From Candidatus Wolfebacteria bacterium RIFCSPLOWO2_01_FULL_38_11 (GTDB lineage: Bacteria > Patescibacteriota > Minisyncoccia > UBA6257 > UBA9933), in contig MGIQ01000023.1 of NCBI GenBank assembly GCA_001793825.1, positions 3,450 to 47,845 on the forward strand: a stretch of DNA of 44,396 nt, given 5' to 3'. Shown one piece after another: positions 3,874 to 32,252 of the stretch. Each line of letters begins with the position of its first letter. Within the stretch, counting starts at the first letter, position 1. Both the position numbers and the translations under genes were made by a program. The notes beneath the pieces were generated by a model, which worked only from the letters and a program-made list of their open reading frames with translations, was not told the origin of the DNA and did not search any database.

Positions 3874-3880
3874 ATATAAA

Positions 3881-4897: not shown

Positions 4898-4933
4898 AAA
4901 TTATGCTAATGTATAATTTATTCGATTAATTGG

Positions 4934-5080
4934 GCCGTCTGGCCCTGTGGGCAAAAATGGAATTGTTTTTAGTTATCGGATGAGCTGGTTTCGGCTGGCT
5001 CTCTCCTCGAAACAATTCTTAATCTCTTTGACTTTCAAAGTTATCTGTGCCCACAGAGCTAGGCGGCTTTTTTATTTTTT
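4934..5080 (+). ncRNA. Candidate structured small RNA (family unknown) ending in a T-tract
   Basis: Sits in a 187-nt spacer between two minus-strand genes. 4934-4952 pairs with 5049-5067 over 19 positions (16 Watson-Crick, 2 G-U, 1 mismatch). An inner helix pairs 4960-4968 with 5010-5018 (9 bp). A side hairpin pairs 5026-5031 with 5035-5040. The run TTTTTTATTTTTT lies at 5068-5080. The G-U pairs favour the + strand. Confidence 0.35.
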
Positions 5081-5084
5081 AAAT

Positions 5085-6809
5085 TTAAAATTGCATTCTT
5101 CCTGTCACTTCTTCCACTTCTTCAAAAGTTGTCATTCCGGAAATAATTTTTAATATTCCGTCTTGCTGCATTGTCGCCATACCTTGTTCTAAGGCAAATT
5201 TTTTTATCGCCGATTCCGGAGCGGATGAAAAAATCAGCTCATCCAATTCTTTATGCGAAGAAAGAGCAATATGGTTTGGATCAATTAAAAGTTTTTCGTA
5301 TTCCGGGTCGTTTAAAATCAATTCATAAATTCCGATTCTTCCCTTATATCCAGAATTATTGCATTTGTCGCATCCGCCCTTTGACGCGGAAAAAATTTTT
5401 ATTTCTTTGAATTTTTCTTTATTAACTCTTTTCGGCAATTGCTTTAAAAATTTTTCTATTTTTATTTTTAATTCATTGTCTGTTTCTTTGATTGTTTTGC
5501 AATTATCGCAGAGTTTTCTTACTAATCTTTGCGCGATTATTAAATTTAAAGCCGACCCGATGCTGGAAGATTTTACTCCTAAATCAACCAAGCGGGGGAT
5601 GGCTCCTGCCGCTGAATTGGCATGGATTGTGGAAAACACTAAATGTCCTGTTAAAGCCGCCTGAATTCCGATTTCTCCGGTTTCTTTATCTCTTATTTCT
5701 CCCACCAAAATCACGTCTGGATCCTGCCTCATTAAAGATTTTAATCCATCGGAAAAATTATAACCCGCCTCTTCGTCAACTTGCGTTTGCTCAATGCCTT
5801 CCAGATGATATTCAATCGGATCTTCAATGGTAATAATTTTTATTTTCGGAGTTTTTTTATGTTTTAAAAAAGCGTAAAGCGTTGTTGTTTTCCCCGAACC
5901 GGTTGGTCCGGTATTTAAAATCAGTCCGTTCGGCCTTTTCAATTCTGTTTTAATAATTTCCAAATCGTCTTCTCTTATTCCCAGCTCGCCCAAAGAAATA
6001 TTAATTGCCTCCGGATCGAGCAATCTCATCACCACCACTTCTCCGAATTCCGAAGGCGCGATTGCCACTCTTACTTCAACTTCCTTGTTTTCTAAATTAA
6101 TTGTAAATCTTCCGTCTTGCGGTTCGTCATAAATATTAATTTTTAAATTGGAAAGAAGTTTTATTTTTGAAAGCAATCGGAAGTAAAAACTTTTTTCTTG
6201 ATTTTCAAAAACATCGTGCAAAATTCCGTCAATCCTCAATCTTATTTTTATTTTTTTATCTATTGGTTCAAAATGAATATCTGAAGCCCGATTTGCCATT
6301 GCTCCCAATAAAATTAATTCCAAAATCATTGCCGCGTCAACCGTTGCCAAATTCATCAGCCCCAGCGCTTGATTTAGACCATCAAGCGAATTTATATTTT
6401 TTTTCAAATCGTTAATTTGACCGACGCTTATCTTTCCACTGATTTTTCCGGGCTCTTTGGAAACGAATTTATAAAAATCAAAAATATAATTCAATCCGGG
6501 CAAAGAAACAACAAAAATTGTCACTTGATATCCCTTTACTTCTAATTCTTCTTTTAATTTTTTTATTTCCTTGGATCCTGGATCATAAACCGCCACTGCC
6601 AACTTGTTTTCTTTAAGCTCAACAGCCGCCGCTTTTATTTTTTTTGCTCTTTCTTCCGCAATTATGGCTAGGGCTTCTGTGTTTATCGGCGTGGTAAAAA
6701 CATTAAGATAAGAAAGTTTGCTTTTTTCCGCCGCTCTTTTGGCATCACGCTCTTCCGCTTCGCGCTTCATTTGCTTTAACTTGTTTTTAATCTCCGCTAT
6801 TGGCTTCAT
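5085..6809 (-). CDS. pilB: Type IV pilus assembly ATPase (GspE/PilB family)
   Basis: 574 aa. It has Walker A GPTGSGKTTT, the Asp box and His box region (MRQDPDVILVGEIRD) and a C-terminal CxxC...CxxC tetracysteine motif. Confidence 0.9.
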   Translation of the reverse strand: MKPIAEIKNKLKQMKREAEERDAKRAAEKSKLSYLNVFTTPINTEALAIIAEERAKKIKAAAVELKENKLAVAVYDPGSKEIKKLKEELEVKGYQVTIFVVSLPGLNYIFDFYKFVSKEPGKISGKISVGQINDLKKNINSLDGLNQALGLMNLATVDAAMILELILLGAMANRASDIHFEPIDKKIKIRLRIDGILHDVFENQEKSFYFRLLSKIKLLSNLKINIYDEPQDGRFTINLENKEVEVRVAIAPSEFGEVVVMRLLDPEAINISLGELGIREDDLEIIKTELKRPNGLILNTGPTGSGKTTTLYAFLKHKKTPKIKIITIEDPIEYHLEGIEQTQVDEEAGYNFSDGLKSLMRQDPDVILVGEIRDKETGEIGIQAALTGHLVFSTIHANSAAGAIPRLVDLGVKSSSIGSALNLIIAQRLVRKLCDNCKTIKETDNELKIKIEKFLKQLPKRVNKEKFKEIKIFSASKGGCDKCNNSGYKGRIGIYELILNDPEYEKLLIDPNHIALSSHKELDELIFSSAPESAIKKFALEQGMATMQQDGILKIISGMTTFEEVEEVTGRMQF

Positions 6810-14307: not shown

Positions 14308-15051
14308 ATGGCCAACCTATTTAACCAAATATTTTATCAGCCGCTTTTTAACGCCTTGGTTATTTTATATGATTTTCTTCCCTGGCCTGATTTAGGCATT
14401 GCCATTATTCTTTTGACAATTTTTATTCGTTTGGTTTTGCTGCCGCTTTTCTATAAAGGCGCCAAAGATCAAGCTATTCTTCAACGATTAGCTCCAAGAA
14501 TAAAAGAAATCCAAAAAACTCATAAAGAAAACAAAGAAGAGCAAGCCAAGGCCATGTTTAATCTTTATAAAGAGCACAAAGTTAATCCTTTTTCCCAGTT
14601 TCTTCTTCTTATTGTTCAGTTGCCGGTTTTAATAGCTTTGTATTGGGTTTTTTCCCGAGGCATTACTCCGGAATCTCTGGAAAATTTATATTCTTTTGTT
14701 TCTGCGCCGGGAACTGTTAATAATTCTTTTCTTGGATTAATTGACCTAAGTAAAAAAAACATTATTGTCATTGGCTTGGCGGCTGTTGCCCAATATTTAC
14801 AAGCCCGGCTTTCTTTGCCTAAAATCAAAAACACCGATGATTTGTCAACCACTGAAAAAATGAGCCGTCAAATGTCTTATCTTGGCCCGGTTATGACTGT
14901 TTTTTTCCTTGCTTATTTACCTGCCGCTATCGGCCTTTATTGGTTGACAACATCCGTTTTTTCGGTTATCCAACAAGTAATAATCAATAAAAAATTAAAA
15001 GTCAGCAATGAACAACTGATTGCAATAGACAAAAAATTGCATTCAAAATAA
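14308..15051 (+). CDS. yidC: Membrane protein insertase YidC (short Oxa1-like form)
   Basis: 247 aa and multi-TM, with the typical NPxxGCLPxLxQxP-like region (NPFSQFLLLIVQLPVLIAL). Supported by synteny. Confidence 0.88.
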   Translation: MANLFNQIFYQPLFNALVILYDFLPWPDLGIAIILLTIFIRLVLLPLFYKGAKDQAILQRLAPRIKEIQKTHKENKEEQAKAMFNLYKEHKVNPFSQFLLLIVQLPVLIALYWVFSRGITPESLENLYSFVSAPGTVNNSFLGLIDLSKKNIIVIGLAAVAQYLQARLSLPKIKNTDDLSTTEKMSRQMSYLGPVMTVFFLAYLPAAIGLYWLTTSVFSVIQQVIINKKLKVSNEQLIAIDKKLHSK

Positions 15052-15058
15052 TTTTATT

Positions 15059-15502
15059 ATGGATAATTTGCAAGATATTTTTAAAAAAATGATTGAGCTG
15101 ATGGGTTTCGATGATTTTTCCGTTTCTTATGACCAAGAAGGCAACCGATTGCTGGTTTTTATAAATGATGCTTTAATTTCCGAAAAGAATCTTCCGTCTT
15201 TTATCAATAATTTCGATTATTTGGCAAAAGTAATCGCTCAAAAAAACAACATTGAATCGATTTTTGTCGATGTTAATAATTATCGCAAAAAGCGGGAAGG
15301 ATTGATTTTGGAGCTCGCCCGCGCCGCCGCTCGAAAATCAGTGGCCGAAAAAAAAGAAATTTCTCTTCCGCCGATGAATGCTTACGAGCGCCGTTTGGTT
15401 CATGTGGATTTGGCTTCTCGGCCAGACATCAAAACCGAAAGCAGCGGAGAAGGTTCTTCCAGATGCATTGTCATTAAGCCCATTGAAAATAATTTTTTAT
15501 AA
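15059..15502 (+). CDS. Jag/KhpB-like R3H domain RNA-binding protein
   Basis: 147 aa with the R3H signature region (MNAYERRLVH). It occupies the position after yidC. Confidence 0.8.
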   Translation: MDNLQDIFKKMIELMGFDDFSVSYDQEGNRLLVFINDALISEKNLPSFINNFDYLAKVIAQKNNIESIFVDVNNYRKKREGLILELARAAARKSVAEKKEISLPPMNAYERRLVHVDLASRPDIKTESSGEGSSRCIVIKPIENNFL

Positions 15503-16384
15503 TCTTTTTGTCAAACTTTGAAATCCTAAATTTCCAAAGTAATTCGCTAATTTTTCTTTAGGCAAGCCGTTATATTTTAACTCTTCCAGATTTTTAATTT
15601 CCAAAGGCGAATCTCTCCTGATTTGAGCCAAATGTTTTGAAAGCAGGGCTTGTTCTTTAAATTCAAGAATTTTTTTATAATTTTTTTCTTCTTTTCCTTT
15701 TTCAAAAAATTCTTCCAAAGAATTGTATTTTTGGATTATCGGCGCCGCTGTTTTCGGCCCGATTCCCGGCACGCCCAAAATATTGTCGGAGGCGTCGCCC
15801 ACCAATCCCTTGTAATCGGGAATCTGCTTTGGCAAAACTCCGAATCTTCTTATCGCTTCTTCTTCGTTATAAATAATTGTTTCACTGATTCCTTTTTTAA
15901 TTGTTTCCACTACCACTTTGTCGTTTTCCACCAACTGCAAAGCGTCTAAATCTCCGGTCAAAATTATAATTTTCAAATTCTCTTCGTTTTTGAATTTTTC
16001 CGCCGCTGTGCCGATTAAGTCGTCTCCCTCAAATCCGGCAATCTCATATGTTTTTATTTCAAAATTTTCAAATAATTTATGGGCTTCGATTATTTGAGAA
16101 ACAAGCTCATCCGGCGCTTTTGGCCGGTGGGCCTTATATTCTTCAAAAACTTTTTTTCTGAAAGTCGGCTCCGGCCTGTCAAAAAAAGCCACGATAAATT
16201 CCGGTAGTTCGCCGTTGATTCCCGCTTCATTTGTTTTTTTGTCAGGGTGCAAAATTTTAATAAGAATACTTGCTAATCCGTATAAAGCTCCGCTCGGCTG
16301 GCCTTCTTTTGTGGTAAAAGGCGGCAAAGCGTGAAAGCATCGATGAATTAAGGAATTGGCGTCGATTAAAAGAAGAGTTTCCAT
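15497..16384 (-). CDS. Stand-alone 5'-3' exonuclease (Pol I N-terminal / FEN-like, PIN plus H3TH)
   Basis: 295 aa. It has LLIDANSLIHRCFHA, GFEGDDLIG, and the H3TH region DNILGVPGIGPKTA. No polymerase domain is present. Confidence 0.88.
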   Translation of the reverse strand: METLLLIDANSLIHRCFHALPPFTTKEGQPSGALYGLASILIKILHPDKKTNEAGINGELPEFIVAFFDRPEPTFRKKVFEEYKAHRPKAPDELVSQIIEAHKLFENFEIKTYEIAGFEGDDLIGTAAEKFKNEENLKIIILTGDLDALQLVENDKVVVETIKKGISETIIYNEEEAIRRFGVLPKQIPDYKGLVGDASDNILGVPGIGPKTAAPIIQKYNSLEEFFEKGKEEKNYKKILEFKEQALLSKHLAQIRRDSPLEIKNLEELKYNGLPKEKLANYFGNLGFQSLTKRL

Positions 16385-16449
16385 AATTTAATAATTATAA
16401 CACGTTTTTAAAGTTGTAATTAAAACGTAAAATTTATAAAATTGTTTAT

Positions 16450-16872
16450 ATGTATTTAATTTATGCTTTTTTATCGGCTATTACCGCGGCCGCTGTGGCG
16501 ATTTTTGCCAAACTCGGTCTAAAAGATATTGACCCCACCTTGGCAACCACCATTCGCTCGATTATTATGGCCGGAATTTTAGTAATTACCAGCATTTTTT
16601 TAAAAAAATTCAGCGGATTTTCCCTGAATTCTTTCAGTTCCCGCGATTGGTTTTTGATTATTTTAGCCGGCATTAGTGGAGCGCTTTCCTGGCTTTTTTA
16701 TTTTATTGCTATCAAATACGGCCTTGCTTCAAAAGTAGTTGCCATTGACCGCTTAAGCATAGTTTTTGTTATTTTTTTAGCTGCCTTATTCTTAGGCGAA
16801 GCTTTGGGTTGGAAATCGGTCTTAGGAGCTGTTTTAATGGTTTCAGGAGCCATTCTTATTACTTTAAAATAA
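16450..16872 (+). CDS. EamA-like small DMT-family transporter
   Basis: 140 aa with four to five predicted TM helices and a single EamA-type repeat pattern. Confidence 0.65.
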   Translation: MYLIYAFLSAITAAAVAIFAKLGLKDIDPTLATTIRSIIMAGILVITSIFLKKFSGFSLNSFSSRDWFLIILAGISGALSWLFYFIAIKYGLASKVVAIDRLSIVFVIFLAALFLGEALGWKSVLGAVLMVSGAILITLK

Positions 16873-18886: not shown

Positions 18887-20743
18887 ATGTCTCTCTTTAA
18901 ATTAAAATCAAAATTTAAACCATCTGGCGACCAGCCTCAAGCCATTAAAAAATTAATCGCAGGTCTTGAAAAAAGCGATCGTTTTCAAACTCTTTTGGGA
19001 GTTACCGGCTCCGGCAAGACTTTTACCATGGCTAATGTCATTGCTCATTTTAATATGCCGGTTTTGGTAATGGCCCCCAATAAAACTTTAGCCGCCCAGC
19101 TTTACCGCGAATACAAAAATTTCTTTCCCCAAAACTCCGTCAATTATTTCGTTTCTTATTACGACTATTATCAGCCCGAAGCTTATCTTCCCACCAGCGA
19201 CACTTATATAGAGAAAGAAGCGATGATTAATGAAGAAATTGATCGCTTGCGCCATCAAGCCACTAGCGCTCTTTTGAGCCGCCGCGATGTTATTGTGGTT
19301 GCTTCTGTTTCCTGCATTTACAATCTTGGCGTGCCAGTAAGTTATTCCGAAGCCGCTCTCCATTTGGAAGAAAATAAAGACATGACTCGCGGAGATTTAA
19401 TCAGGCAATTGGTAAAAATGCAATTTGAAAGAACTGGTGGAGCCTTAAAAAGGGGATTTTTCCGTGTTCGGGGCGATGTTTTTGAAATTATGCCTGCCAG
19501 CGGCGCTGTTATTAACAGGATTGAAATAAAAGAACAAAAAATTATTTCTATTGCTGATGTTGACCCAATTAGCCAAAAAATAATCCAAGAATTAAAAGAT
19601 ATTGTTATTTTTCCGCCCAAGCATTTTATTTCCAGCCAGCCTCAAATCGAATCCGCCACCAAAGAAATTAAAAAGGAATTAAAAGAGCGCTTACAATATT
19701 TTGAAAAAAACAAGCTTTATTTGGAAGCGGAACGATTAGAGCGAAGAACCAGATATGATATGGAAATGCTTCAAAGCATTGGTTATTGTCATGGCATTGA
19801 AAATTATTCTCGCCATCTTTCCGGAAAAATCAGCGGCGAATCGCCGGACACCTTGCTTTCTTATTTTCCTTCGGCTCGCCGAAGCCCCGGCGAAGAAGGC
19901 CACCCTGATTTTCTAACCATTATCGATGAATCTCATATTGCTGTTCCTCAAGTCAAAGGGATGTATGAGGGCGATAGAAGCCGTAAAGAGGTTTTAATCC
20001 AATACGGTTGGCGTCTGCCTTCTGCCTTGGATAATCGGCCGCTTAAATTCGAAGAATTTGAAAAAAGAATCAATCAGGTGATTTTTACTTCAGCCACTCC
20101 CGGCGCTTATGAAATGAAAAACTCTTCCAAAATTGTTGAACAAGTCATTCGGCCAACCGGCTTAATTGATCCGCCGATTGAAGTCCGTCCGGTTTTTAAC
20201 AAACAAAAAAATCGCAGTCAAATAGACGATCTAATGGAAGAAATAAAAAAAGTGGTCTCTAAAAAAGAGCGCGCCATTATCAACACGCTTACTAAAAAAA
20301 TGGCTGAAGATTTAACGGATTATTTAAAGAAAAAAAAGTTCAAAGCCAATTATATGCATTCAGAAACCAAAACTCTGGAGCGCGTTAAAATTCTGACCGA
20401 CTTCCGCTCCGGTAAGTTTGACGTTTTAATTGGCGTTAATCTTTTGCGGGAAGGATTGGATCTTCCTGAAGTGACTTTCGTGGCGATTTTGGACGCTGAC
20501 CGCGAAGGTTTTTTGCGTAGCGAATCGTCTATTATTCAAACCATGGGCCGCGCCGCCAGAAACGTTAATGGCAAAGTGATTTTATATGCTGATAATATTA
20601 CTGGCTCAATGAAGAGGGCGATTGATGAAGTTGAACGCAGAAGAAAAATTCAGGCGGAATATAACAAAAAACATAACATTACTCCTCAAAGTATTCACAA
20701 AGAAATTGAAAAACTTATAGAAATTGAAAATGAAAAAGAGTAA
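18887..20743 (+). CDS. uvrB: Excinuclease ABC subunit B
   Basis: 618 aa with GVTGSGKTFT, IIDESH, YGWRLPSALDNRPL and LREGLDLPEV. It contains an extra GC-rich segment at 19871-19903 (see findings). Confidence 0.95.
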   Translation: MSLFKLKSKFKPSGDQPQAIKKLIAGLEKSDRFQTLLGVTGSGKTFTMANVIAHFNMPVLVMAPNKTLAAQLYREYKNFFPQNSVNYFVSYYDYYQPEAYLPTSDTYIEKEAMINEEIDRLRHQATSALLSRRDVIVVASVSCIYNLGVPVSYSEAALHLEENKDMTRGDLIRQLVKMQFERTGGALKRGFFRVRGDVFEIMPASGAVINRIEIKEQKIISIADVDPISQKIIQELKDIVIFPPKHFISSQPQIESATKEIKKELKERLQYFEKNKLYLEAERLERRTRYDMEMLQSIGYCHGIENYSRHLSGKISGESPDTLLSYFPSARRSPGEEGHPDFLTIIDESHIAVPQVKGMYEGDRSRKEVLIQYGWRLPSALDNRPLKFEEFEKRINQVIFTSATPGAYEMKNSSKIVEQVIRPTGLIDPPIEVRPVFNKQKNRSQIDDLMEEIKKVVSKKERAIINTLTKKMAEDLTDYLKKKKFKANYMHSETKTLERVKILTDFRSGKFDVLIGVNLLREGLDLPEVTFVAILDADREGFLRSESSIIQTMGRAARNVNGKVILYADNITGSMKRAIDEVERRRKIQAEYNKKHNITPQSIHKEIEKLIEIENEKE

Positions 20744-21371: not shown

Positions 21372-23864
21372 ATGGAAGACAAAATTATTATCAAAGGCGC
21401 CCGAGTTCACAATCTTCAAAATATTGATCTTGAACTGCCGAAAAATAAAATGATAGTTTTTACCGGCGTCTCCGGAAGCGGAAAATCTTCCTTGGCTTTT
21501 GATACGATTTTTGCCGAAGGCCAGCGCCGCTACATTGAATCTCTTTCTCCTTATGCCCGCCAATTTTTAGGCCAAATGGATCGTCCTGATGTTGATGAAA
21601 TCATCGGTCTTTCCCCAGCTATTGCCATAGACCAAAAAGCTTTATCTCATAACCCGCGCTCTATTGTCGGCACTTTGACGGAAATTTACGATTATCTCCG
21701 CGTGCTTTACGCTCGTTTGGGCGAAGTTTATTGCCCCAAGTGCGGCTCTAAAATAAAAAAACTTTCTTTGGAAGAAATGGTTGATATTGTTGTCGCTAAG
21801 GCAAAAAGCTTAAAAGAAGAAACAGTTGTGATTTTTGCTCCGGTTGTCCGCGGTCGCAAAGGCGAGTATTATCAATTGCTTTATGATTTTCTTTCTTTGG
21901 GTTTTAGAGAAGCGAGAATTGACGGTAAAATCCATTCGCTCCATGAAAAAATAGAACTTTCCCGCTATAAGCCGCACGACATCGAAATTGTTATTGATGA
22001 AGTAATGATTAAAGACGAAAGCCGGCTTTTTGAAGCCGTTGAAAGCGCCCTAAATCATAGCAAAGGATTGATGCTGGCGAATTTTACAAAAGAGGAATTG
22101 CTTCTTTCTTCAAAATGGACTTGTCCCAATGATAATTTTTCTTTTCCCGAAGTTGAGCCGCGCTTATTTTCTTTTAACAGCCCTTACGGCGCTTGCGAGG
22201 ATTGCTCTGGTTTGGGCAAAAGCGATTTATTTTTAAAAACAATCTGTCCCGTTTGCCATGGTAAAAGATTAAAACCCGAAGCTTTGGCTGTGAAAATAAA
22301 GAATAAAAATATTTGGGAATTAAGTTCTTTAACTATTGATAAAATCTACGAGTTTTTTATTGATTATGAAGCTAAATTAAGCGAGCGCGAAAAAAAGATT
22401 GCCAGCAATATTTTAAAAGAAATAATCGGCCGTCTTAGTTTTTTATTGGAAGTCGGGCTTAATTATTTGTCATTAGACAGAGAAGCGGAAACTTTGTCCG
22501 GCGGCGAAGCTCAAAGAATTAGATTGGCTTCTCAAATCGGCTCTCAGCTTTCCGGCACGCTTTATGTTTTAGACGAGCCGACTATTGGCCTTCACGAAAG
22601 AGATACGGAGAGACTCATTAAAACCTTAAAATCATTGAAAGACCAAAAAAACACTCTTATTGTCGTGGAACACGATGAAAAAACCATTTTTGAATCGGAT
22701 TATTTTGTTGATTTAGGCCCTTTAGCCGGGAAAAATGGCGGCCGAGTAGTAGCCTTCGGCAAAACCGGCGAACTGATTAAAAATCCCAAAAAATTCAAAG
22801 AATCCTTAACTTTGAAATATTTAAGCAACGAGAAAAAAATAGAACTTCCGGAAATTCGCCGGTCAAAAAGCGCGGAAAAGATAAAAATTATCGGCGCCAG
22901 AGCAAATAATTTAAAAAATATTGACGTGGAAATCCCTTTAAGGAGATTAGTTTGCTTAACCGGCGTCTCTGGCAGCGGAAAATCTTCTTTACTCTACGAT
23001 GTTCTTTATAAAAATTTAAGCAATTTAAAAGCCGGTTTTAGTGAAATGGAAAATGCCAGCCGGATTTTGGGCACTGAATATATTGATAAAGTGGTAATGG
23101 TTGATCAATCACCCATTGGTCGCACGCCCCGCTCCAATCCTGCCACTTATACCGGAATTTTTACGCCGATTCGCGAATTTTATGCGTCTTTGGAAGAATC
23201 CCGAGCCAAAGGATATACCGCTTCCAGATTTTCTTTTAATGTCGTCGGCGGAAGATGTGAAGCCTGCCAAGGCGCTGGCTTTAATTTGATTGAAATGCAT
23301 TTTTTGCCGCCGGTTTTGGTTCAATGTGATGTTTGCCGCGCTAAACGTTTTAATCGCGAAACTTTGCAGGTAAAACATAAAAATAAAAACATTCACGACA
23401 TTTTGGAAATGAGAGTTGATGAAGCATTGGAATTTTTCGACGGTCTTTACACCATTACCGACAAACTTAAGGTTTTGCAGGAAGTGGGGTTGGGTTATCT
23501 GCAGCTTGGCCAATCAGCCACTACGCTTTCCGGCGGAGAAGCTCAAAGGATAAAGCTGGCTCGTGAGCTTACTCATCCTTTAGGCAGGCGCGCTTTGTAT
23601 CTTTTGGATGAGCCGACTGTCGGCCTTCATTATTACGATATTGAAATGCTGCTGAAAGTTTTTAATAAGCTGATTGAAAAAGGAAACACGGTGATTGTCA
23701 TTGAGCATAATATGCAAATAATCAAATCAGCTGATTATATTATTGATTTGGGTCCGGAAGGCGGCGATCTTGGCGGGAAAATTGTAACCAAAGGATTGCC
23801 CGAAGAAATTGTTCAAAATAAAAATTCTTACACCGGCGCCTATCTTAAGCGTTATCTTGTCTGA
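21372..23864 (+). CDS. uvrA: Excinuclease ABC subunit A (short form)
   Basis: 830 aa with two ABC modules (GVSGSGKSSL twice, LSGGEAQR twice). Only about 16 residues separate the CEDC and CPVC pairs, where the insertion domain normally sits. Confidence 0.93.
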   Translation: MEDKIIIKGARVHNLQNIDLELPKNKMIVFTGVSGSGKSSLAFDTIFAEGQRRYIESLSPYARQFLGQMDRPDVDEIIGLSPAIAIDQKALSHNPRSIVGTLTEIYDYLRVLYARLGEVYCPKCGSKIKKLSLEEMVDIVVAKAKSLKEETVVIFAPVVRGRKGEYYQLLYDFLSLGFREARIDGKIHSLHEKIELSRYKPHDIEIVIDEVMIKDESRLFEAVESALNHSKGLMLANFTKEELLLSSKWTCPNDNFSFPEVEPRLFSFNSPYGACEDCSGLGKSDLFLKTICPVCHGKRLKPEALAVKIKNKNIWELSSLTIDKIYEFFIDYEAKLSEREKKIASNILKEIIGRLSFLLEVGLNYLSLDREAETLSGGEAQRIRLASQIGSQLSGTLYVLDEPTIGLHERDTERLIKTLKSLKDQKNTLIVVEHDEKTIFESDYFVDLGPLAGKNGGRVVAFGKTGELIKNPKKFKESLTLKYLSNEKKIELPEIRRSKSAEKIKIIGARANNLKNIDVEIPLRRLVCLTGVSGSGKSSLLYDVLYKNLSNLKAGFSEMENASRILGTEYIDKVVMVDQSPIGRTPRSNPATYTGIFTPIREFYASLEESRAKGYTASRFSFNVVGGRCEACQGAGFNLIEMHFLPPVLVQCDVCRAKRFNRETLQVKHKNKNIHDILEMRVDEALEFFDGLYTITDKLKVLQEVGLGYLQLGQSATTLSGGEAQRIKLARELTHPLGRRALYLLDEPTVGLHYYDIEMLLKVFNKLIEKGNTVIVIEHNMQIIKSADYIIDLGPEGGDLGGKIVTKGLPEEIVQNKNSYTGAYLKRYLV

Positions 23865-23878
23865 CAATTTAGCTGCTA

Positions 23879-23906
23879 TTGACAAAAATTTTAATTTCTG
23901 TAAGCT
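23879..23906 (+). promoter_or_regulatory. Putative promoter of the GC-rich orphan ORF (TTGACA, 16-nt spacer, TAAGCT)
   Basis: The -35 is at 23879-23884 and the -10-like hexamer at 23901-23906, just after the uvrA stop. Confidence 0.35.
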
Positions 23907-23999
23907 TAAAAAACTTTTTTCTAAAAAGTGTTAGTTCTTTGAAATATTCGGAAAAACCCTTGGCGAAGGGTAAAAAAAAACCAAAAAAAGGAGAGTTAA

Positions 24000-24794
24000 A
24001 TGGAGAAAGAGCCGCAGTCAAAGCTGGACGTAAAGGAGTTCGCGAAAGGGCAGTTGGAGGCCTTAGGGAAGGAGCTGTTCAATGCGCTTCTTTTCATAAC
24101 CGCCTGTCTCGTGCGCCCCAACGGAGGAGTGATGATCATCGGAGCAAACGGGACCATCAGCGAGAGACTCCCGTTGGTCAATAATATAGACGGCACCTTC
24201 ATCACCTATGTCATGCTGACCCAGTATGACGGCGAGCAGATCGTCGCAGTCGGCCTGATCGGCAGGATGAGCGACAGCGTTAAGGAGGTAATCAGCCTGA
24301 TCGTCGGCAACATGAAAGAGCTGGGCATCGAAAGCGTATTCCTGCCCGGCTATCTCGGATACTCGTCCTTAAAGGTCCCTATGACTCACGTTTGCCGCGG
24401 GAGCAATCTCGATCAGCAGATAATACAGATCAAGGGTCCGGTGTTCTTCGACAACAACAATGACACCGTCTTGTTCACGCACGGCAAAGATATCATCGAA
24501 GTGCCGATGAGAGAAGCCTTCGGAAAGCTGAACTGGTCAGCCGTAAGTAGGAGGATCGGCGAGGTCAGCGACGAAATAACAGCGCTTGCCAGAGGAGCTG
24601 ATAGCTCTCTCATCATCAACACGACCGGCAAGTTCTATACGCTTAATCTGGAAGAGAAGAAAGTCAAACCCTTCTCTCTGCCGGCCGCGCTCGCTTCAAA
24701 GGCAACTCCGACCTTCTTCACCTTTACCGAAAGCAAGAAGTTCATCGCGGCTCTCTATGTCACCGGCCAGCTCACAATCGAAAGAGCCAGCTAA
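24000..24794 (+). CDS. Orphan hypothetical protein, compositionally foreign (~50% GC)
   Basis: 264 aa with SD GGAGAG upstream. No TM or signal peptide is visible and I recognise no family. Two hand-counted samples give 51-53% GC, against 35% in the adjacent uvrA 3' end. Codon usage is rich in CTG, ATC, GGC, GAC and AGC. Confidence 0.7.
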   Translation: MEKEPQSKLDVKEFAKGQLEALGKELFNALLFITACLVRPNGGVMIIGANGTISERLPLVNNIDGTFITYVMLTQYDGEQIVAVGLIGRMSDSVKEVISLIVGNMKELGIESVFLPGYLGYSSLKVPMTHVCRGSNLDQQIIQIKGPVFFDNNNDTVLFTHGKDIIEVPMREAFGKLNWSAVSRRIGEVSDEITALARGADSSLIINTTGKFYTLNLEEKKVKPFSLPAALASKATPTFFTFTESKKFIAALYVTGQLTIERAS

Positions 24795-24823
24795 GACGGG
24801 CCTGCCCGGAAAGATTCACCGAT

Positions 24824-24878
24824 AAAACCTTCGCCAAGGTTTTTAGCCCCGCATTTTTTAAAAATGCGGGGCTTCTTA
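24824..24878 (+). terminator. Tandem hairpin terminators after the orphan ORF
   Basis: AAAACCTT-CGCC-AAGGTTTT lies at 24824-24843. It is followed by AGCCCCGCATTTTT/AAAAATGCGGGGCT (24845-24872) and then TCTTATTT. Confidence 0.7.
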
Positions 24879-24915
24879 TTTGAATAAGTTTTTTAATTGA
24901 TTTATAACTACTTTT

Positions 24916-26127
24916 ATGAAGCTGATTGATCAGGCTAAAAAATTGCCTTTATCGCCCGGAGTCTATTTTTTTCTTAATAAAAAAAACGAAATTTTATATA
25001 TCGGCCGCGCTGTTTTTTTAAGGAAAAGAGTATTGAATTATTTCCAAAAAAACATTGACTCGCGCGTTGCCGAAATGATTCGTTCTGCTTCCAATATAAA
25101 ATTCAAAAAAACCGGCACTCTTTTAGAAGCCGTAATTTTAGAAGCTAATTTAATAAAAAAACACTGGCCCAAATATAATGTCAAAGAAAAAGATAATCGT
25201 TCTTTTATTTACATTGTTATTCCTAAAACCGATTACCCAAAGCCAATAATTGTTCGCGGACGCGAGCTGGAAAAATTTCCTTCCGCCACTGCTAAAATTT
25301 TCGGTCCCTATCAAAGTTTATCCCTTGTCAAAAGCGCTTTAAAAATTATTAGAAAAATTTTTCCCTACAGCACTTGTTTGCCTGCCAAAGCCTTGGCGAA
25401 GGCAGGCCGGCCTTTTTCCGACCAGCCTTGTTTTTATTATCAAATCGGTTTGTGTCCCGGCTTATGCATTGGCGCGATTTCCAAGAAAGAATACCAAAAA
25501 AACATAAAAAACATTATTTTGCTTTTATCCGGCCAAAAAAATAAATTAATAAAGGATTTACGAAAAGAAAATCCCGAAAAGGCCGGAGCTTTAAAACACA
25601 TCCAAGATGTCGCTTTGATTGCTGAAGCGGAAAAGGGATGGGCAGATGTCCAGAACCAAGGTTTAAAGCGCATTGAAGCCTATGACATTTCTCATTTGTC
25701 CGGAAAAGAAACTTATGGCTCAATGGCGGTTTTCTCTGGTAGCGAACCGGAAAAAAGCCAATATCGCTTGTTTAAAATAAAAACAGCTTTGCCATCCGAT
25801 GATTTACGGGCTTTGGAAGAGATGGTTTTAAGGCGCCTAAAACACAAAGAATGGACGCTTCCTGATTTGATTTTAATTGACGGCGGCAGTCCCCAAATCA
25901 ACTGGATTTCCGATGTTTTAAAAAGCCGGCGCTTAAATATTCCCCTGGTCGGCTTGGCAAAATCCGCCAGCCGGCGGAGCGGCGATAAATTGGTCTTTCC
26001 ACCCAAAACTAAAAAATCATTCAAGGAATTGGCGGATAGCATTAAAGGAATTTTGTTGAAATCCCGCGATGAAGCTCACCGCTTTGCTCTAAAATCCAGC
26101 CGCCGGTCAAGGAGAAGGCAATTTTAA
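24916..26127 (+). CDS. uvrC: Excinuclease ABC subunit C (short form lacking the C-terminal HhH2)
   Basis: 403 aa with the GIY-YIG N-terminus (PGVYFF...ILYIGRA), a Cys-rich region, and an endonuclease V-like domain (IEAYDISHLSG, DEAHRFA). It ends right after DEAHRFA. An extra segment lies at about 25384-25413. Confidence 0.9.
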   Translation: MKLIDQAKKLPLSPGVYFFLNKKNEILYIGRAVFLRKRVLNYFQKNIDSRVAEMIRSASNIKFKKTGTLLEAVILEANLIKKHWPKYNVKEKDNRSFIYIVIPKTDYPKPIIVRGRELEKFPSATAKIFGPYQSLSLVKSALKIIRKIFPYSTCLPAKALAKAGRPFSDQPCFYYQIGLCPGLCIGAISKKEYQKNIKNIILLLSGQKNKLIKDLRKENPEKAGALKHIQDVALIAEAEKGWADVQNQGLKRIEAYDISHLSGKETYGSMAVFSGSEPEKSQYRLFKIKTALPSDDLRALEEMVLRRLKHKEWTLPDLILIDGGSPQINWISDVLKSRRLNIPLVGLAKSASRRSGDKLVFPPKTKKSFKELADSIKGILLKSRDEAHRFALKSSRRSRRRQF

Positions 26128-26761: not shown

Positions 26762-27622
26762 ATGGATGACATCCGGTTGGAGGTTTTAGATATCGGCTTA
26801 GCCGATATCAAGGCGTTAAAGTTCGAATTAGTTGCCGGCCTCAGTCTTTTCAAGAGCGGGATGATTAAGGTTATAAATTTTAATCATATTCCTCGGTCAA
26901 TAGAGGCCATTGCCGAAGTGCTGATTCCTCTCTATGACAAAGGCGGCGTTTGGGTGGAGAGCATTCAGATAAGGCCGGAGGAAGAATTGGTAAGCGGGGA
27001 ATTGTTCGGTTTGCTTTCTCCGGCAACATTAAAACTGCTTAATAAAATCGCGGAAAAGATCAACGATGCCGGCATCAAAGATGCCGCTTTCCCTGTTCAT
27101 CCTTATATTCCCCTGCGGCTGGAAAAAAAGATAAACCCGTTTTTTGGGCATATGAGCCATCTATCCAGGGGCCATACCGGCCTGTTTCCCGATAACAATA
27201 TCAGGGGATTCCGGATATTAGATGGCGAAGACAATGCCGTCTTTATTTCCGGCGACAGAGAGATCAGGGAAATATTTTTAGGAGAAATTCATCGCCGGAA
27301 TTGGCTGCCTTCTTCGTATTCTTTATGGAAAAGCAAAAAGAAAATCAATTCCCTTGGCCGGCAAGCTGGTAATCTTCTTCCTTTGGCTTTGAAAAACGGG
27401 GATAGTTTGCGGATAAATATCCCTCTTCTTCGGGAGCTTAAAAGGGAGAAAAAGTGGAAAAAAAGACTTTTGTCTTTTTTAGGCAGAAGAAAACCGGTGG
27501 AGAAAATCATCGGCAGACCCAAAGTGACCAATTATGTCGGCCAGTGCCATTTTTGTAAAGGCGTTGAGGCGGCGGTATCGCAAAACGGCGCCAAGATATA
27601 CCTTTTTCCAAGTTCTTTATAA
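26762..27622 (+). CDS. Orphan hypothetical protein with basic C-terminal region
   Basis: 286 aa, with no family I recognise. It has a K/R-rich stretch (KREKKWKKRLLSFLGRRKP) and a CHFC pair near the C-terminus. GC is elevated. It has its own promoter, SD and terminator. Confidence 0.6.
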   Translation: MDDIRLEVLDIGLADIKALKFELVAGLSLFKSGMIKVINFNHIPRSIEAIAEVLIPLYDKGGVWVESIQIRPEEELVSGELFGLLSPATLKLLNKIAEKINDAGIKDAAFPVHPYIPLRLEKKINPFFGHMSHLSRGHTGLFPDNNIRGFRILDGEDNAVFISGDREIREIFLGEIHRRNWLPSSYSLWKSKKKINSLGRQAGNLLPLALKNGDSLRINIPLLRELKREKKWKKRLLSFLGRRKPVEKIIGRPKVTNYVGQCHFCKGVEAAVSQNGAKIYLFPSSL

Positions 27623-28481: not shown

Positions 28482-29774
28482 ATGAAACTCAATCATCTTA
28501 AAAAATCCGACCCTCGGCTTTATAAATTAATTTCCGCCGAAATTAAAAGGCAGGACGAAACACTTGATTTAATCGCTTCGGAAAATTTTGTTTCTCCGGA
28601 AATTTTGGAAGTTTTGGGTTCGCCTTTAACCAATAAATATTCCGAAGGCTATCCGGGGAAACGTTATTATCCGGGAAATCTTTATTATGATGAAATTGAA
28701 GAATTAGCCAGAACTCGCGCCTTAAAAGCTTTTAAATTAAATTCAAAAAATTGGAGCGTTAATGTCCAGCCGTATTCCGGCTCTCCGGCCAATTTAGCGA
28801 TTTATTTTGCCTTAACAAAACCCGGCGATATTTTAATGGGAATGGATCTAGCAAGCGGCGGGCACTTAAGCCACGGTCATAAAGCCACTATTTCCGGAAA
28901 ACTTTTTAAATCAATCCAATATTCCGTTGATAAAAAAACTGGCTTAATAAATTATTCTGAAGTGGAAAAATTAGCCAAAAAACACAAACCAAGAATAATT
29001 ATTTCCGGTTATTCCGCTTATCCTAGAAAAATTGATTTTAAGAAATTTGGCGAAATTGCCAAAAGCGTTGGCGCATATCACTTGGCTGACATTTCTCATA
29101 TTGCCGGACTTGTTTCTGCCGGCTTTCATTCTTCGCCATTTCCTTATGCTGATGTGGTAATGACGACAACTCATAAAACTTTGCGCGGCCCAAGAGGAGC
29201 GGTGATATTTTCAAGAAAAGAAAAAATGCTTCATGCTTCAGGTTTTATGCTTCACGAAGCAATTGATAAAACGATTTTTCCAGGCATTCAAGGCGGCCCG
29301 CACAATAATGCTATTGCCGCCATTGCAGTTGCTTTTGGCGAAGCGCTAAAGCCGAATTTTAAAAAATATCAACAGCAAATAATTAAAAATGCCAGAGTCT
29401 TGGCGGAATCTTTAAAAAAATACGACTTTAATTTGGTTTCCGGCGGAACGGACAATCATTTGCTTTTAATTGATTTGAAAAATTTAGATATAGGAGGATT
29501 GGAAGCGGAAAAAATTTTAGAATCAGCTGGTATTATTGCCAACCGTAATTCTATTTCCGGCGACACTTCGCCTTTTAATCCCTCTGGCCTAAGATTAGGC
29601 GCGCCGGCTGTTACCACTAGGGGATTTAAAGAAAAAGAAATGAAAAAAATTGCTGACTGGATTTATCGGCTTTTAATCAAAAAAGAAAAACCTTCCTTAA
29701 TTAAGAAAGAAGTATTAAAATTATTAAAACAACGCCGTTTAAAAGGCCGGCCTTTAACAAATAAATACGAATAA
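28482..29774 (+). CDS. glyA: Serine hydroxymethyltransferase
   Basis: 430 aa with LIASENF, the PLP-lysine region TTTHKTLRGPRG and FPGIQGGPH. It has an extra heptamer-repeat segment at 29226-29261. Confidence 0.95.
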   Translation: MKLNHLKKSDPRLYKLISAEIKRQDETLDLIASENFVSPEILEVLGSPLTNKYSEGYPGKRYYPGNLYYDEIEELARTRALKAFKLNSKNWSVNVQPYSGSPANLAIYFALTKPGDILMGMDLASGGHLSHGHKATISGKLFKSIQYSVDKKTGLINYSEVEKLAKKHKPRIIISGYSAYPRKIDFKKFGEIAKSVGAYHLADISHIAGLVSAGFHSSPFPYADVVMTTTHKTLRGPRGAVIFSRKEKMLHASGFMLHEAIDKTIFPGIQGGPHNNAIAAIAVAFGEALKPNFKKYQQQIIKNARVLAESLKKYDFNLVSGGTDNHLLLIDLKNLDIGGLEAEKILESAGIIANRNSISGDTSPFNPSGLRLGAPAVTTRGFKEKEMKKIADWIYRLLIKKEKPSLIKKEVLKLLKQRRLKGRPLTNKYE

Positions 29775-30723: not shown

Positions 30724-30757
30724 AAGGCTTTGGAGATAATCTCCAAAGCCTTTTTTT
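30724..30757. terminator. Bidirectional terminator between the small-gene island and rtcB
   Basis: AAGGCTTTGGAGAT (30724-30737) pairs perfectly with ATCTCCAAAGCCTT (30739-30752), followed by a T-run. The flanking genes are convergent. Confidence 0.8.
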
Positions 30758-32252
30758 ATTCTCCTTTAATTACCGCCAAAGGCACTAAACGCGCCACTTT
30801 TTTAGAAAGATTGGCCTGATGCACTATTTCCACCACTTCATCAATATCTTTGTATGCCTGCGGCGCCTCTTCGGCAATTCCTCTTATTGAATAACATTTA
30901 ACGATAATATTTTTATTTTCGAGATTTTTTATAATTTCTTGCCCTTTTAAAGTTTTTAGAGCTTGGTGCCGTGACATTGTTCGACCAGCTCCGTGGCAAG
31001 AGCTGTAAAAAGCTTCTTTTCCTTTTTCTGTTCCGTGCAAAATATAGGAAGCCGTGCCCATAGAACCCGGAATAATCACCGGCTGGCCGATTTCTTTATA
31101 TTTCTTGGGAATTTCCGGATGACTCGGCGGACTTTGTCTCGCCGTAGGCTCGCTTCGTCCAGCCGAAGGCGGAAAAGCCCGAGTTGCGCCTTTTCTATGA
31201 ACCAATAATCCGTCTTCTAATTTGGCAATATTATGGGCAACATCATATAGAACTTCCAGATTTTCATTATTTTCATTGAGAAAAACTTTTTTCCAGCTTT
31301 CTCTTATGTAGTGAGTAATCATTTGCCGATTAGCCCAGGCAAAATTTGCCCCACAAGCCATTGCTTTGAAAAATTTCTGGCCTTCCGGCGAATTAAACGG
31401 CGCGCAAGCCAATTCTTTATCCGGAAGATGAATATTGTATTTCGGCATTACTTGGAGCATTAATCTTATATAATCAGTGGCGATTTGGTGTCCTAATCCG
31501 CGACTGCCGGTATGAATCATTACAACCGCTTGATTTTTGAACAGTCCGAAAATTTTCGCGGCGTTTTCGTCAAAAATTTCCTCCACTTTCTGGATTTCCA
31601 AAAAATGATTGCCGCTGCCAAGCGTGCCAACTTGATCTCTGCCTCTATTTTTAGCGGTATCTGAAACTTCATTGGCATCCGCCCATTCCAATCGGCCGTT
31701 AGCTTCGCAATTTTCCATATCTTCTTTTTTGCCGTAACCTTGTTTTATTAGTTCTTGTGCTCCATTTTCCAAAATTTTATCCAACTCATTGACGCTCAAT
31801 TTTATTTTTCTGCCTCGGCCTAGTCCGGAAGGAACATTTCTTTGGATTTCCGTTGCCAAATCATCCAATCGATTTTTGATTTCATCGGCCGAAACATCGG
31901 ATTTTAATAATCTAACCCCGCAATTTATGTCGTAGCCCACGGCGCCGGGAGAAATTATACCGCTTGCCTCGCTGGAGCCTTGGCGAAGCGGGTCAGAAGC
32001 GCGAGTGGCAAAAACTCCGCCAATCGGCGAGCCGTATCCTTCATGGACATCAGGCATTACTAGCGCGTATTTTTCAATGCCCGGAAGTGTGGTTAAATTC
32101 ACTAATTGTTCTAGCGATTTATCCTTAAAAACCGATTCCAGCATTTTTTCGCTGGCGTAAATTCTGGCTGGAACTCTCATATCGCTTCGGAAAGTTTTCG
32201 GTATTTCCCATAGATAATCGCTTATTTTTATAAGATTATTTTTTGCAATCAT
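30756..32252 (-). CDS. rtcB: RNA-splicing ligase RtcB (3'-phosphate/5'-hydroxyl RNA ligase)
   Basis: 498 aa with MPDVHEGYG, GYDINCGVR, GSGNHF, HTGSRGLGHQ, HRKGATRAF, PGSMGTASY and SSCHGAGR. It has two extra GC-rich segments (see findings). Confidence 0.95.
   Translation of the reverse strand: MIAKNNLIKISDYLWEIPKTFRSDMRVPARIYASEKMLESVFKDKSLEQLVNLTTLPGIEKYALVMPDVHEGYGSPIGGVFATRASDPLRQGSSEASGIISPGAVGYDINCGVRLLKSDVSADEIKNRLDDLATEIQRNVPSGLGRGRKIKLSVNELDKILENGAQELIKQGYGKKEDMENCEANGRLEWADANEVSDTAKNRGRDQVGTLGSGNHFLEIQKVEEIFDENAAKIFGLFKNQAVVMIHTGSRGLGHQIATDYIRLMLQVMPKYNIHLPDKELACAPFNSPEGQKFFKAMACGANFAWANRQMITHYIRESWKKVFLNENNENLEVLYDVAHNIAKLEDGLLVHRKGATRAFPPSAGRSEPTARQSPPSHPEIPKKYKEIGQPVIIPGSMGTASYILHGTEKGKEAFYSSCHGAGRTMSRHQALKTLKGQEIIKNLENKNIIVKCYSIRGIAEEAPQAYKDIDEVVEIVHQANLSKKVARLVPLAVIKGE

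Follow-up and report, generated by a model that had tools for sequence, protein, structure and literature searches.

This study concerns a 44,396-nucleotide (nt) stretch of DNA from Candidatus Wolfebacteria bacterium RIFCSPLOWO2_01_FULL_38_11 (contig MGIQ01000023.1; the whole stretch is hereafter termed the window), in which the excision-repair gene uvrC and its surroundings contain several copies of a GC-rich 12-mer, CCTTGGCGAAGG. Our analysis points to two related objects that share this 12-mer. The copy in uvrC is the core of a 30-nt hairpin repeat resembling repetitive extragenic palindromes (REPs), whereas the intergenic copies make up a separate pair of blocks in the 5' and 3' untranslated regions (UTRs) of an orphan gene, termed ORF264 (ORF, open reading frame); we consider this joint account likely. 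The uvrC copy belongs to a hairpin family whose members are inserted in frame into protein genes, are patchily distributed and covary in their stems. The two blocks are conserved on the 5' and 3' sides of one orphan gene family.

A first-pass annotation of this DNA had listed the 12-mer at three exact sites and as a near-match in rtcB. Direct counting confirmed this observation, and the interpretation given with it is partly supported, as described below. The exact copies lie at 23958-23969 (+), 24828-24839 (-) and 25391-25402 (+), and a copy with one mismatch lies at 31978-31989 (+) within rtcB, a gene on the - strand. In the window, which has a GC content of 38%, only 0.0014 exact copies are expected from the base composition; at up to one mismatch, six matches were found compared to 0.28 in shuffled sequences, and none of 100 shuffles got to six, so that the claimed excess over chance stands. 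The 12-mer is not strictly self-complementary, as had been stated, for its CCTT/AAGG arms enclose a non-palindromic GGCG centre.

An in-frame hairpin insert in uvrC

The 25391 copy sits in a full hairpin copy at 25378..25407 (+), an in-frame 30-nt insert encoding LPAKALAKAG that is recognised by a covariance model and is missing from the UvrC of the closest relative (P0003/L003). By the family consensus, the unit spans 25377-25406 and consists of the tag TTTG followed by the 26-nt core CCTGCC-AAA-GCCTTGGC-GAA-GGCAGG (25381-25406); the covariance model scored it at 45.7 bits (E = 9e-9). The reading frame and the nesting in GCCTGCC...GGCAGGC proposed in the first-pass annotation were both borne out, the protein segment being C154-LPAKALAKAG-RPFSDQP-C172. 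Within the Cys-rich region of UvrC, the insert occupies a variable loop that separates the first cysteine from the second; in E. coli UvrC, these cysteines serve as [4Fe-4S] ligands.

Among 121 UvrC homologues of the clade, the spacer between these two cysteines is 7 residues in 83, 6 residues in 9 and longer in 29, compared to 17 residues in the window, and 92 of the 121 carry no insert. On these counts, the long spacer noticed earlier reflects a real insert that is not typical of the clade. Homologous UvrC inserts are found in two other lineages of the candidate phyla radiation (CPR), represented by L001 and L002, where they occupy an identical codon boundary. The outer stem of these two reads CCCGCC/GGCGGG, compared to CCTGCC/GGCAGG in the window, a compensatory difference at two synonymous third positions. 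Several UvrCs of the clade have like peptides at exactly the same site (LPAEASAKAG, LPRHSEAKAG, VPAEALAKAG and LSSEALLAKEG). On a neighbour-joining tree of the 121 sequences, the element-type insert, found in nine of them, requires at least six state changes (a soft count), and the insert-bearing UvrCs are scattered beside insert-less relatives. The differences in presence between relatives, the changes on the tree and the compensatory stem support, at the level of sequence comparison, insertion rather than inheritance.

The loop itself is a permissive site: it also holds 15 unrelated inserts, and its length in the clade varies between 6 and 55 residues. The AlphaFold model of UvrC has a mean predicted local distance difference test score (pLDDT) of 85.5, but values below 50 for residues 153-186, which fits a flexible or cofactor-dependent region as far as the model goes. 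Other inserts also recur in this loop, namely PVKSPAGDHVAS, the group GPAQGEAR / LPAQAG / KPFGKAQG, and LPAGRPA (in P0036, P0082, P0089, P0047, P0050, P0097, P0035, P0041, P0066 and P0075), and may represent further hairpin-repeat families. A second insert in the L001 UvrC is likewise palindromic at the DNA level, and a diversity-generating-retroelement-like set (bAvd and reverse transcriptase fragments) lies at 12843-14282 of L001, about 1.5 kb downstream of the insert-bearing uvrC. When the L001 and L002 insert sequences were compared to their own contigs, a 13-17-nt match in the metK gene of L002 was judged coincidental, as that stretch has the same length as in E. coli MetK.

Structure and definition of the hairpin family

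The first-pass annotation had defined the repeat family by the 12-mer. The family is instead defined by the extended 30-nt hairpin, with the consensus CYTG-CCNGCC-GAA-GCYTYRGC-GAA-GGCNGG. One genome per species was scanned for the extended-palindrome pattern CCNGCCNAAGCNTNNGCGAAGGCNGG, which fixes 20 of 26 positions and for which the roughly estimated chance expectation is ~1 to 100 matches, and a covariance model was made from 114 distinct copies. Six base pairs form the outer stem of the hairpin and three the inner stem; a symmetric GAA/GAA internal loop separates the two, and a CUUG-type loop caps the inner stem. On its 5' side the hairpin has an unpaired tag of 4 nt, and its 3' edge is sharp. 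As judged by information content, the 5' flank GCYTG is conserved, and there is a steep fall after position 26. These edges and the exact gaps found in uvrC and rtcB give a unit of 30 nt (CYTG plus the 26-nt core).

The nine base pairs of the two helices are formed in 98.3% of cells across the 114 copies. At outer-stem positions 3 and 24, C-G (79 copies), A-T (21), T-A (8) and G-C (1) replace one another, in addition to eight G.U or U.G pairs, and inner-helix positions 12 and 15 alternate between C-G (70) and T-A (41). The covariation score is 0.177, compared to 0.069 in shuffles, none of 500 of which equalled it. A CCTT-GGCG-AAGG hairpin was rejected as the main family structure, the 12/15 covariation fitting a GCY-TY-RGC inner helix instead. 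As read directly from the sequence, the commonest form is 30 nt long and free of stop codons in all six frames; a copy in a tolerant protein loop therefore adds just 10 residues.

An intergenic composite variant was observed at 3603-3647 of L002, with the GCYTYRGC helix swapped for a nested hairpin, TCCCGCC-AGG-GCGGGA, and with GTAG as the left loop. Rfam searches of the window and 18 loci gave no family matching the hairpin, the only matches in the loci being tRNA and RNase P; in the window, nothing reached the gathering score, and at E ≤ 1 only sub-threshold anti-hemB and RsaJ appeared, which were taken as chance. Neither the element sequence nor its peptides were found in the searchable literature, where keywords gave only general REP literature.

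Distribution and genomic contexts

The scan matched at least 120 loci in at least ten phyla, in genomes with a GC content of 31-75%. They come from Alpha-, Gamma- and Deltaproteobacteria; Bacteroidota, Chlorobiota and Ignavibacteria; Verrucomicrobiota, Kiritimatiellae and Planctomycetota; Acidobacteriota, Chloroflexota and Bacillota; and many Patescibacteria. The dispersed hairpin is found both in intergenic DNA and in genes, and to this extent the claim of one element family that is extragenic as well as coding stands; it is not supported for the local intergenic 12-mers, which form the separate UTR pair described below. Many copies lie within long ORFs, and mostly read PAEALAKAG or, when reversed, PAFAKASAG. 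In low-GC genomes, the in-frame hosts include the alanyl- and isoleucyl-tRNA synthetases (AlaRS, and IleRS twice), LigA, Lnt, ribosomal protein S1 and an Lpd-like oxidoreductase; the LigA insert appears to lie between zinc-finger cysteines. No sampled match among these loci was in uvrA, uvrB, uvrC or rtcB.

RNA genes are a recurrent context. Fifteen copies out of 125 share exactly 3 nt with the 3' CCA of a tRNA or transfer-messenger RNA (tmRNA) gene, and each of them is antisense to that gene; 13 of these 15 have a CCAGCC/GGCTGG stem; three more copies abut tRNA 5' ends. Two class A RNase P RNA genes also contain a copy (L012 2586-2977, from a Geobacter metagenome-assembled genome (MAG), and L094 1619-2013, from another MAG), at a site that we read as helix P12 from the flanking sequence, and the L012 gene has a second, inverted copy at 2606-2639.

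The covariance model revealed 18 extra copies in 100 loci (up to 8 kb each). Among these, six inverted doublets were found with a spacing of 15-70 nt, all head-to-head (L005, L008, L012, L033, L058 and L097), and there are tandem arrays of copies as well as copies nested inside other repeats. Short tandem or microsatellite-like repeats flank many copies (GAGAAA..., AACAGG..., TCAACCTA... and GTTGTTT), and some copies are nested in another widespread palindrome, CCTCTCCCCGC...GCGGGGAGAGG; repeat-flanked or nested copies occur in L013, L016, L031, L075, L081, L083, L087, L092, L095 and L121. In L018, a Flavisolibacter MAG, two full elements (2062-2087 and 5032-5057) bracket katG, forward upstream and reverse downstream, and one of the two directly follows a tRNA-Ser gene. 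Seventeen viral contigs carry a copy, one of them in frame in a phage protein. That protein, encoded by an ORF starting at ~2139 of L127 (an IMG/VR contig), is common to five viral contigs and reads …GLPARRSLGEGGP… at the element. Phages may be a transfer route between hosts.

This distribution bears on the idea that the uvrC insert represents an old loop, transmitted vertically and retained for the sake of its peptide, with the palindrome as a by-product of Ala, Gly and Pro codons and the other matches as coincidence. Such an origin would account for the similar peptides at the same UvrC position, some of which look like diverged descendants of one insert. However, the 30-nt unit recurs in non-coding DNA, RNA genes and unrelated proteins, in both orientations and several frames and across phyla; moreover, the change of stem between lineages is compensatory at synonymous third positions, and the UvrCs with the insert are scattered among close relatives without it. 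The matches of the genome scan in several phyla, with their several reading frames, effectively refute this idea, to which we give hardly any credence.

A decayed copy in rtcB and a probable copy in uvrB

Within the window, the covariance model recognised one clear hairpin copy, that in uvrC, and two decayed ones. The near-match in rtcB proved to be a further in-frame insert: a decayed 30-nt copy at 31962..31991 (-), encoding PLRQGSSEAS and forming an exact 10-residue gap against the RtcB of L003. The model matched it at 31961-31994 (+) with 15.8 bits (E = 0.11), and the element is antisense to the gene, being in forward orientation on the + strand. The second site, at 19873..19901 (+) in uvrB, is a probable shortened or decayed copy, GGCTCGCC-GAAGCCCCGGCGAAG-AAGGCC, with a weak model match (11.1 bits, E = 1.4). 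It encodes SARRSPGEEGH where the L003 UvrB, six residues shorter, has KKNGK, and the peptide is like that of family frame 2 (ARRSLGEGG), so that this site is probably a third family copy. Hence, at least two conserved genes of the window, and probably three, carry copies, and presence differs between the window and L003 at three genes (uvrC, rtcB and uvrB).

Other inserts were observed in the same genes. The window rtcB has a second insert of 14 residues, PPSAGRSEPTARQS (31131-31172, -), that is missing from the L003 RtcB; its DNA is GC-rich with palindromic pieces (CGCCGTAGGC... and GTCCAGCCGAAGGCGG), like variant members of the same superfamily. L003 in turn has private inserts of 14 residues in UvrB (PAPYNPAKDGTHLG; gene at 3284-5167) and of 17 AT-rich residues in RtcB (NYNANIQINTNDANTNG; gene at 15008-16477). 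UvrB and RtcB genes seem to gather lineage-specific inserts generally.

The genes of this region are arranged in the order uvrB (18887-20743), a membrane protein gene, uvrA (21372-23864), ORF264 (24000-24794) and uvrC (24916-26127), followed by mgtC, ORF286 (26762-27622), a DsbA-like gene, a serine hydroxymethyltransferase gene and rtcB (30756-32252, -). The homologues of its proteins assign the window to Patescibacteria, and the protein clusters include the name Candidatus Wolfebacteria GW2011_GWC1_37_10. Two other GC-rich 12-mers occur three times each in the window: CAACAGCCGCCA at 11571, 14777 and 18836, of which one lies 50 nt upstream of the start of uvrB, and AGCGCAAATCGC at 33141, 33356 and 41639. 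In addition, a perfect palindrome, AAAGGCCGGCCTTT, lies at 29742-29755 near the end of the gene at 28482-29774, and its 12-mer AGGCCGGCCTTT is also the right flank of the uvrC element (25404-25415).

ORF264 and the paired blocks in its untranslated regions

The two intergenic 12-mers are part of a 17-nt inverted repeat, AAAACCCTTGGCGAAGG / CCTTCGCCAAGGTTTTT (pair I6), around ORF264, and they are not ordinary members of the hairpin family but a separate object. The covariance model gave E > 10 for both, which have neither the outer stem nor the 5' tag. A metagenome scan for A-flanked 12-mers (AAAANCCTTGGCGAAGG) returned no dispersed family and mostly unrelated coding matches with no conserved flanks; its exceptions were L178, which has a full element, and L155, which led to the conserved pair.

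ORF264 (24000..24794, +) is an orphan gene for a 264-aa protein with a GC content of 52.8%, and of 71.7% at third codon positions, compared to 38% for the window. It has no Pfam or NCBIfam match, a word-indexed search of 5.8 billion proteins found only ORF264 itself, and an exhaustive HMMER search gave two weak matches to giant repeat proteins. Its single-sequence AlphaFold model is poor (pLDDT 43). Weak homology was detected to ORF286 of the window (E = 4e-4) and to an ORF of L155 (E = 0.018). The ORF264 relatives in L155, L260 and L261 have a GC content of only ~44%.

A conserved 5'UTR block, AAAACCCTTGGCGAAGGGTAAAA (23953..23975, +), has its 12-mer (23958-23969) some 30 nt upstream of the start codon of ORF264, and a conserved 3'UTR block, AAAACCTTCGCCAAGGTTTTT (24824..24844, +), contains the reverse complement of the 5' block around the 12-mer at 24828-24839. 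The 3' block lies right before an intrinsic-terminator-like hairpin (24845..24873, +; a 13-pair stem with a T-rich tail) that ends the transcription unit. In the syntenic relative L155, a 264-aa ORF is preceded by AAAACCCTTGGCGAAGGGAAAA ~27 nt before its start and followed, ~50 nt after its stop, by GAACCCTTCGCCAAGGTTTC and then a terminator hairpin. The 5' block is 22/23 identical in L155, amid otherwise diverged AT-rich DNA. A profile search added two more members, L260 and L261, both with both blocks, and in L155, L260 and L261 the 3' block is kept with a hairpin of differing sequence at the same terminator place. All four loci with flanks (the window, L155, L260 and L261) therefore keep both blocks, and these are nearly invariant amid diverged UTR sequence and diverged proteins, the ORFs of the window and L155 sharing ~20% identity. 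The sole substitution in a block, in the 3' copy of L260, gives a G.U pair.

In RNAfold predictions for the four transcripts, the 5' copy pairs with the 3' copy with a probability of 0.91-0.99. In the mRNA, the two 12-mers would pair as a 12-bp clamp between the 5' and 3' ends. Relative to the family pattern, which has G at position 10, the UTR pair has C or A; the family inner helix is therefore broken and a CCCTT/AAGGG hairpin is favoured. For the individual intergenic copies, a CCTT-GGCG-AAGG-type hairpin is possible.

In the window, the gene and its blocks form part of an insertion of ~1.05 kb between uvrA and uvrC (23865..24915, +), in which a promoter-like region and the terminator accompany the 5' block, ORF264 and the 3' block. 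The extent of the inserted block follows from L003, where uvrA overlaps uvrC, stop to start, within an otherwise syntenic neighbourhood whose flanking proteins are 69-81% identical. In L155, L260 and L261, the cassette lies instead between mgtC and dsbA.

Two other explanations of the pair act at the DNA level. The first is that the 12-mers are inverted-repeat sites for a site-specific recombinase, in which case the gene would be an invertible switch or else a mobile cassette with the 12-mers at its ends. The pair is indeed one double-stranded site in strictly opposite orientation, with the GGCG and CGCC centres kept in four loci; the cassette sits at uvrA/uvrC in one case and at mgtC...dsbA in the others, and ORF264 is of foreign composition. 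However, the inserted block, with its promoter-like region and terminator, goes ~90 nt and ~75 nt past the repeats, so that these do not delimit the DNA that was moved. Furthermore, one orientation is found in all five loci, including the collinear sister contig L262 (99.7% identical), no locus has an adjacent recombinase gene, and the L260 substitution, which suits RNA as a G.U pair, would be a mismatch between two DNA sites. On these grounds, we favour an RNA-level 5'-3' clamp and regard the recombinase explanation as unlikely.

The second is that the 12-mers are operators, with the dyad CCTT-N4-AAGG bound by a transcription factor for excision-repair genes in the manner of an SOS box. Three copies do lie within 1.5 kb around uvrA and uvrC, one of them 88 nt upstream of the uvrC start. 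Nevertheless, in L155, L260 and L261 the pair goes with the ORF264-type gene between mgtC and dsbA and not with uvr genes, the adjacent uvrA and uvrC of L003 are without a site, and the copies in uvrC and rtcB are accounted for by the repeat family. An operator function is accordingly extremely improbable in our estimation.

The RNA clamp that we favour has a counterpart in icaR of Staphylococcus aureus, where the 5'UTR and 3'UTR of one mRNA pair and the 3'UTR masks the ribosome-binding site. Both have a short, perfect, GC-rich complement in the 3'UTR and 5'UTR of the same (here predicted) transcript. The two differ in that the 5' copy of ORF264 lies ~15-20 nt upstream of the ribosome-binding site, and the pairing here is a folding prediction. 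As for a possible inverton, the ORF264 pair has inverted repeats; a single orientation was observed in the five loci, and no adjacent recombinase gene.

The pair and the dispersed family nevertheless have the very same 12-mer, which in the family is part of the commonest core; chance identity of this conserved 12-mer between the two is very unlikely. The UTR pair may descend from two flanking hairpin copies of which the cores were retained, an origin to which the arrangement of elements around katG in L018 offers a likeness.

Comparison with known repeats and possible routes of spread

The dispersed element is best described, from this analysis, as a REP-like selfish palindrome of unusual phylogenetic breadth. 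According to Di Nocera et al. 2013 (PMC3733652), REPs are tagged palindromes of 20-40 nt in which head-to-head doublets predominate, and intragenic copies, which occur in frame, are noted above all for UvrABC(D), RecBCD, DNA ligase and tRNA synthetases. The hairpin resembles them in being an imperfect palindrome, GC-rich and 30 nt long, with G.U pairs in its stems and, at one end, a short tag that is unpaired; it occurs singly, in clusters and in doublets that are predominantly head-to-head, lies mostly in intergenic DNA with some copies in frame, and has host genes of the same kinds (UvrB/UvrC, LigA and tRNA synthetases). It differs in its tag, CYTG (within the conserved flank GCYTG) in place of the GTAG or CGTC of the REP superfamilies, and in having a conserved internal loop, the symmetric GAA/GAA. 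Whereas REP families described so far are for the most part species- or genus-specific, this core is near-identical across at least ten phyla; the precise CCA-end fusions and the location in RNase P RNA are further differences. GTAG does occur in the left internal loop of a minority of variants, internal to the hairpin, which is a lead towards the GTAG superfamily rather than a demonstrated link.

REP doublets, termed REPINs, are reportedly moved by RAYT transposases. The first-pass annotation had suggested a search for a RAYT, IS200-like or other mobilising enzyme; clustering of ORFs of at least 110 aa within up to 8 kb of 137 loci gave no recurrent transposase-like family near the copies, and no RAYT gene was seen within 8 kb of these loci, although one located elsewhere in a genome would escape this survey.

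Other small repeats show partial likenesses. The Rickettsia palindromic elements (RPEs) are said to be selfish palindromic repeats that, like this hairpin, are inserted in frame in essential protein genes and also in RNA genes, adding a tolerated peptide; yet RPE-1 is ~100-150 bp long and confined to Rickettsia, compared to 30 nt and many phyla here, and its sequence is different. MITEs, the miniature inverted-repeat transposable elements, are likewise small, non-autonomous, dispersed and structured, but they measure 50-500 bp and have transposon-derived terminal inverted repeats and target-site duplications, whereas the hairpin is 30 nt long, consists as a whole of a sole palindrome, has a sharp 3' edge without a conserved flank, and shows no consistent duplication.

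As for a mechanism, the element would spread as a selfish or neutral hairpin recognised by a trans-acting enzyme on single-stranded nucleic acid, REP/REPIN movement by RAYT tyrosine transposases being the nearest model, and copies would persist only at harmless sites.

Several observations weigh against this account. The window has only three to four copies, the element is without the GTAG or CGTC tag of the described REP superfamilies, no transposase-like family recurs within 8 kb of the 137 loci, and 72,556 scanned plasmids gave two partial matches only. The six UvrC origins are a soft number, since they come from a neighbour-joining tree of closely spaced sequences, and repeated precise loss is possible. 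The invariance of the GAA loop is partly imposed by the search pattern with its many fixed positions, and variants do exist with other outer stems or with GTA, ATA or GCA for the left GAA. With respect to the UTR pair, the folding program pairs any perfect 12-nt GC-rich complement, and three of the four loci are closely related to one another. Finally, near-identity of 30 nt across phyla is hard to reach via lineage-specific transposases and could reflect a conserved host function instead.

The last point leads to the alternative that the hairpin is a functional RNA or DNA module recruited by the host and recognised by a conserved factor of the cell, which could be an RNase, an enzyme of tRNA processing, gyrase or a transcriptional regulator; the same sequence would therefore have been retained across phyla. 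A structure-specific ligand would leave the signature that is seen, namely unpaired nucleotides conserved across phyla and stems that covary, with G.U pairs among them. The precise fusions to tRNA and tmRNA CCA ends, the three copies at tRNA 5' ends, the hairpin within the RNase P RNA gene (read as P12) and the same 12-mer held under selection in the ORF264 UTR pair would also fit. On the other hand, copies run in either orientation relative to host genes and use several reading frames, close relatives differ in whether they have a copy, to no evident effect, and the copies in rtcB and uvrB of the window are decaying. Copies of the element also form tandem arrays and nest inside other repeats, are almost missing from the plasmids, and match no Rfam family. 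We consider a host module rather improbable, and its corollary, that the uvrC and rtcB copies affect mRNA stability, translation pausing or local DNA topology, quite doubtful.

A related possibility keeps the element mobile: the hairpin would be near-universal in bacteria and spread via a conserved host activity, two copies having been domesticated as an mRNA clamp here. Candidate activities would be those at tRNA-like acceptor ends or at single-stranded DNA hairpins. If true, such spread would explain the core shared by at least ten phyla, the exact CCA fusion and the copies in RNase P RNA, although we think it rather improbable. A REP-like selfish hairpin, with the ORF264 blocks as a separate UTR pair, thus remains our preferred account.

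Significance

Small palindromic repeats are usually deemed lineage-specific. The occurrence of the same core in Patescibacteria, Proteobacteria, Bacteroidota, Verrucomicrobiota, Planctomycetota, Acidobacteriota and other groups raises the question of which conserved machinery recognises the hairpin, and how it moves between and within genomes. Recognition may depend on the conserved GAA/GAA loops and on the CYTG tag, and the CCA junctions are a clue to the target site.

For annotation, the hairpin accounts for 10-residue segments added to proteins that are essential (UvrC, UvrB, RtcB, LigA, tRNA synthetases and S1), and it also affects RNase P RNA; such inserts will confuse alignments and phylogenies of CPR (Patescibacteria) proteins. 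The copies in this window add to the observation that intragenic REPs favour excision-repair genes (PMC3733652). The UTR pair, for its part, is a candidate new cis-element that has outlasted nearly all protein similarity in an orphan gene family.

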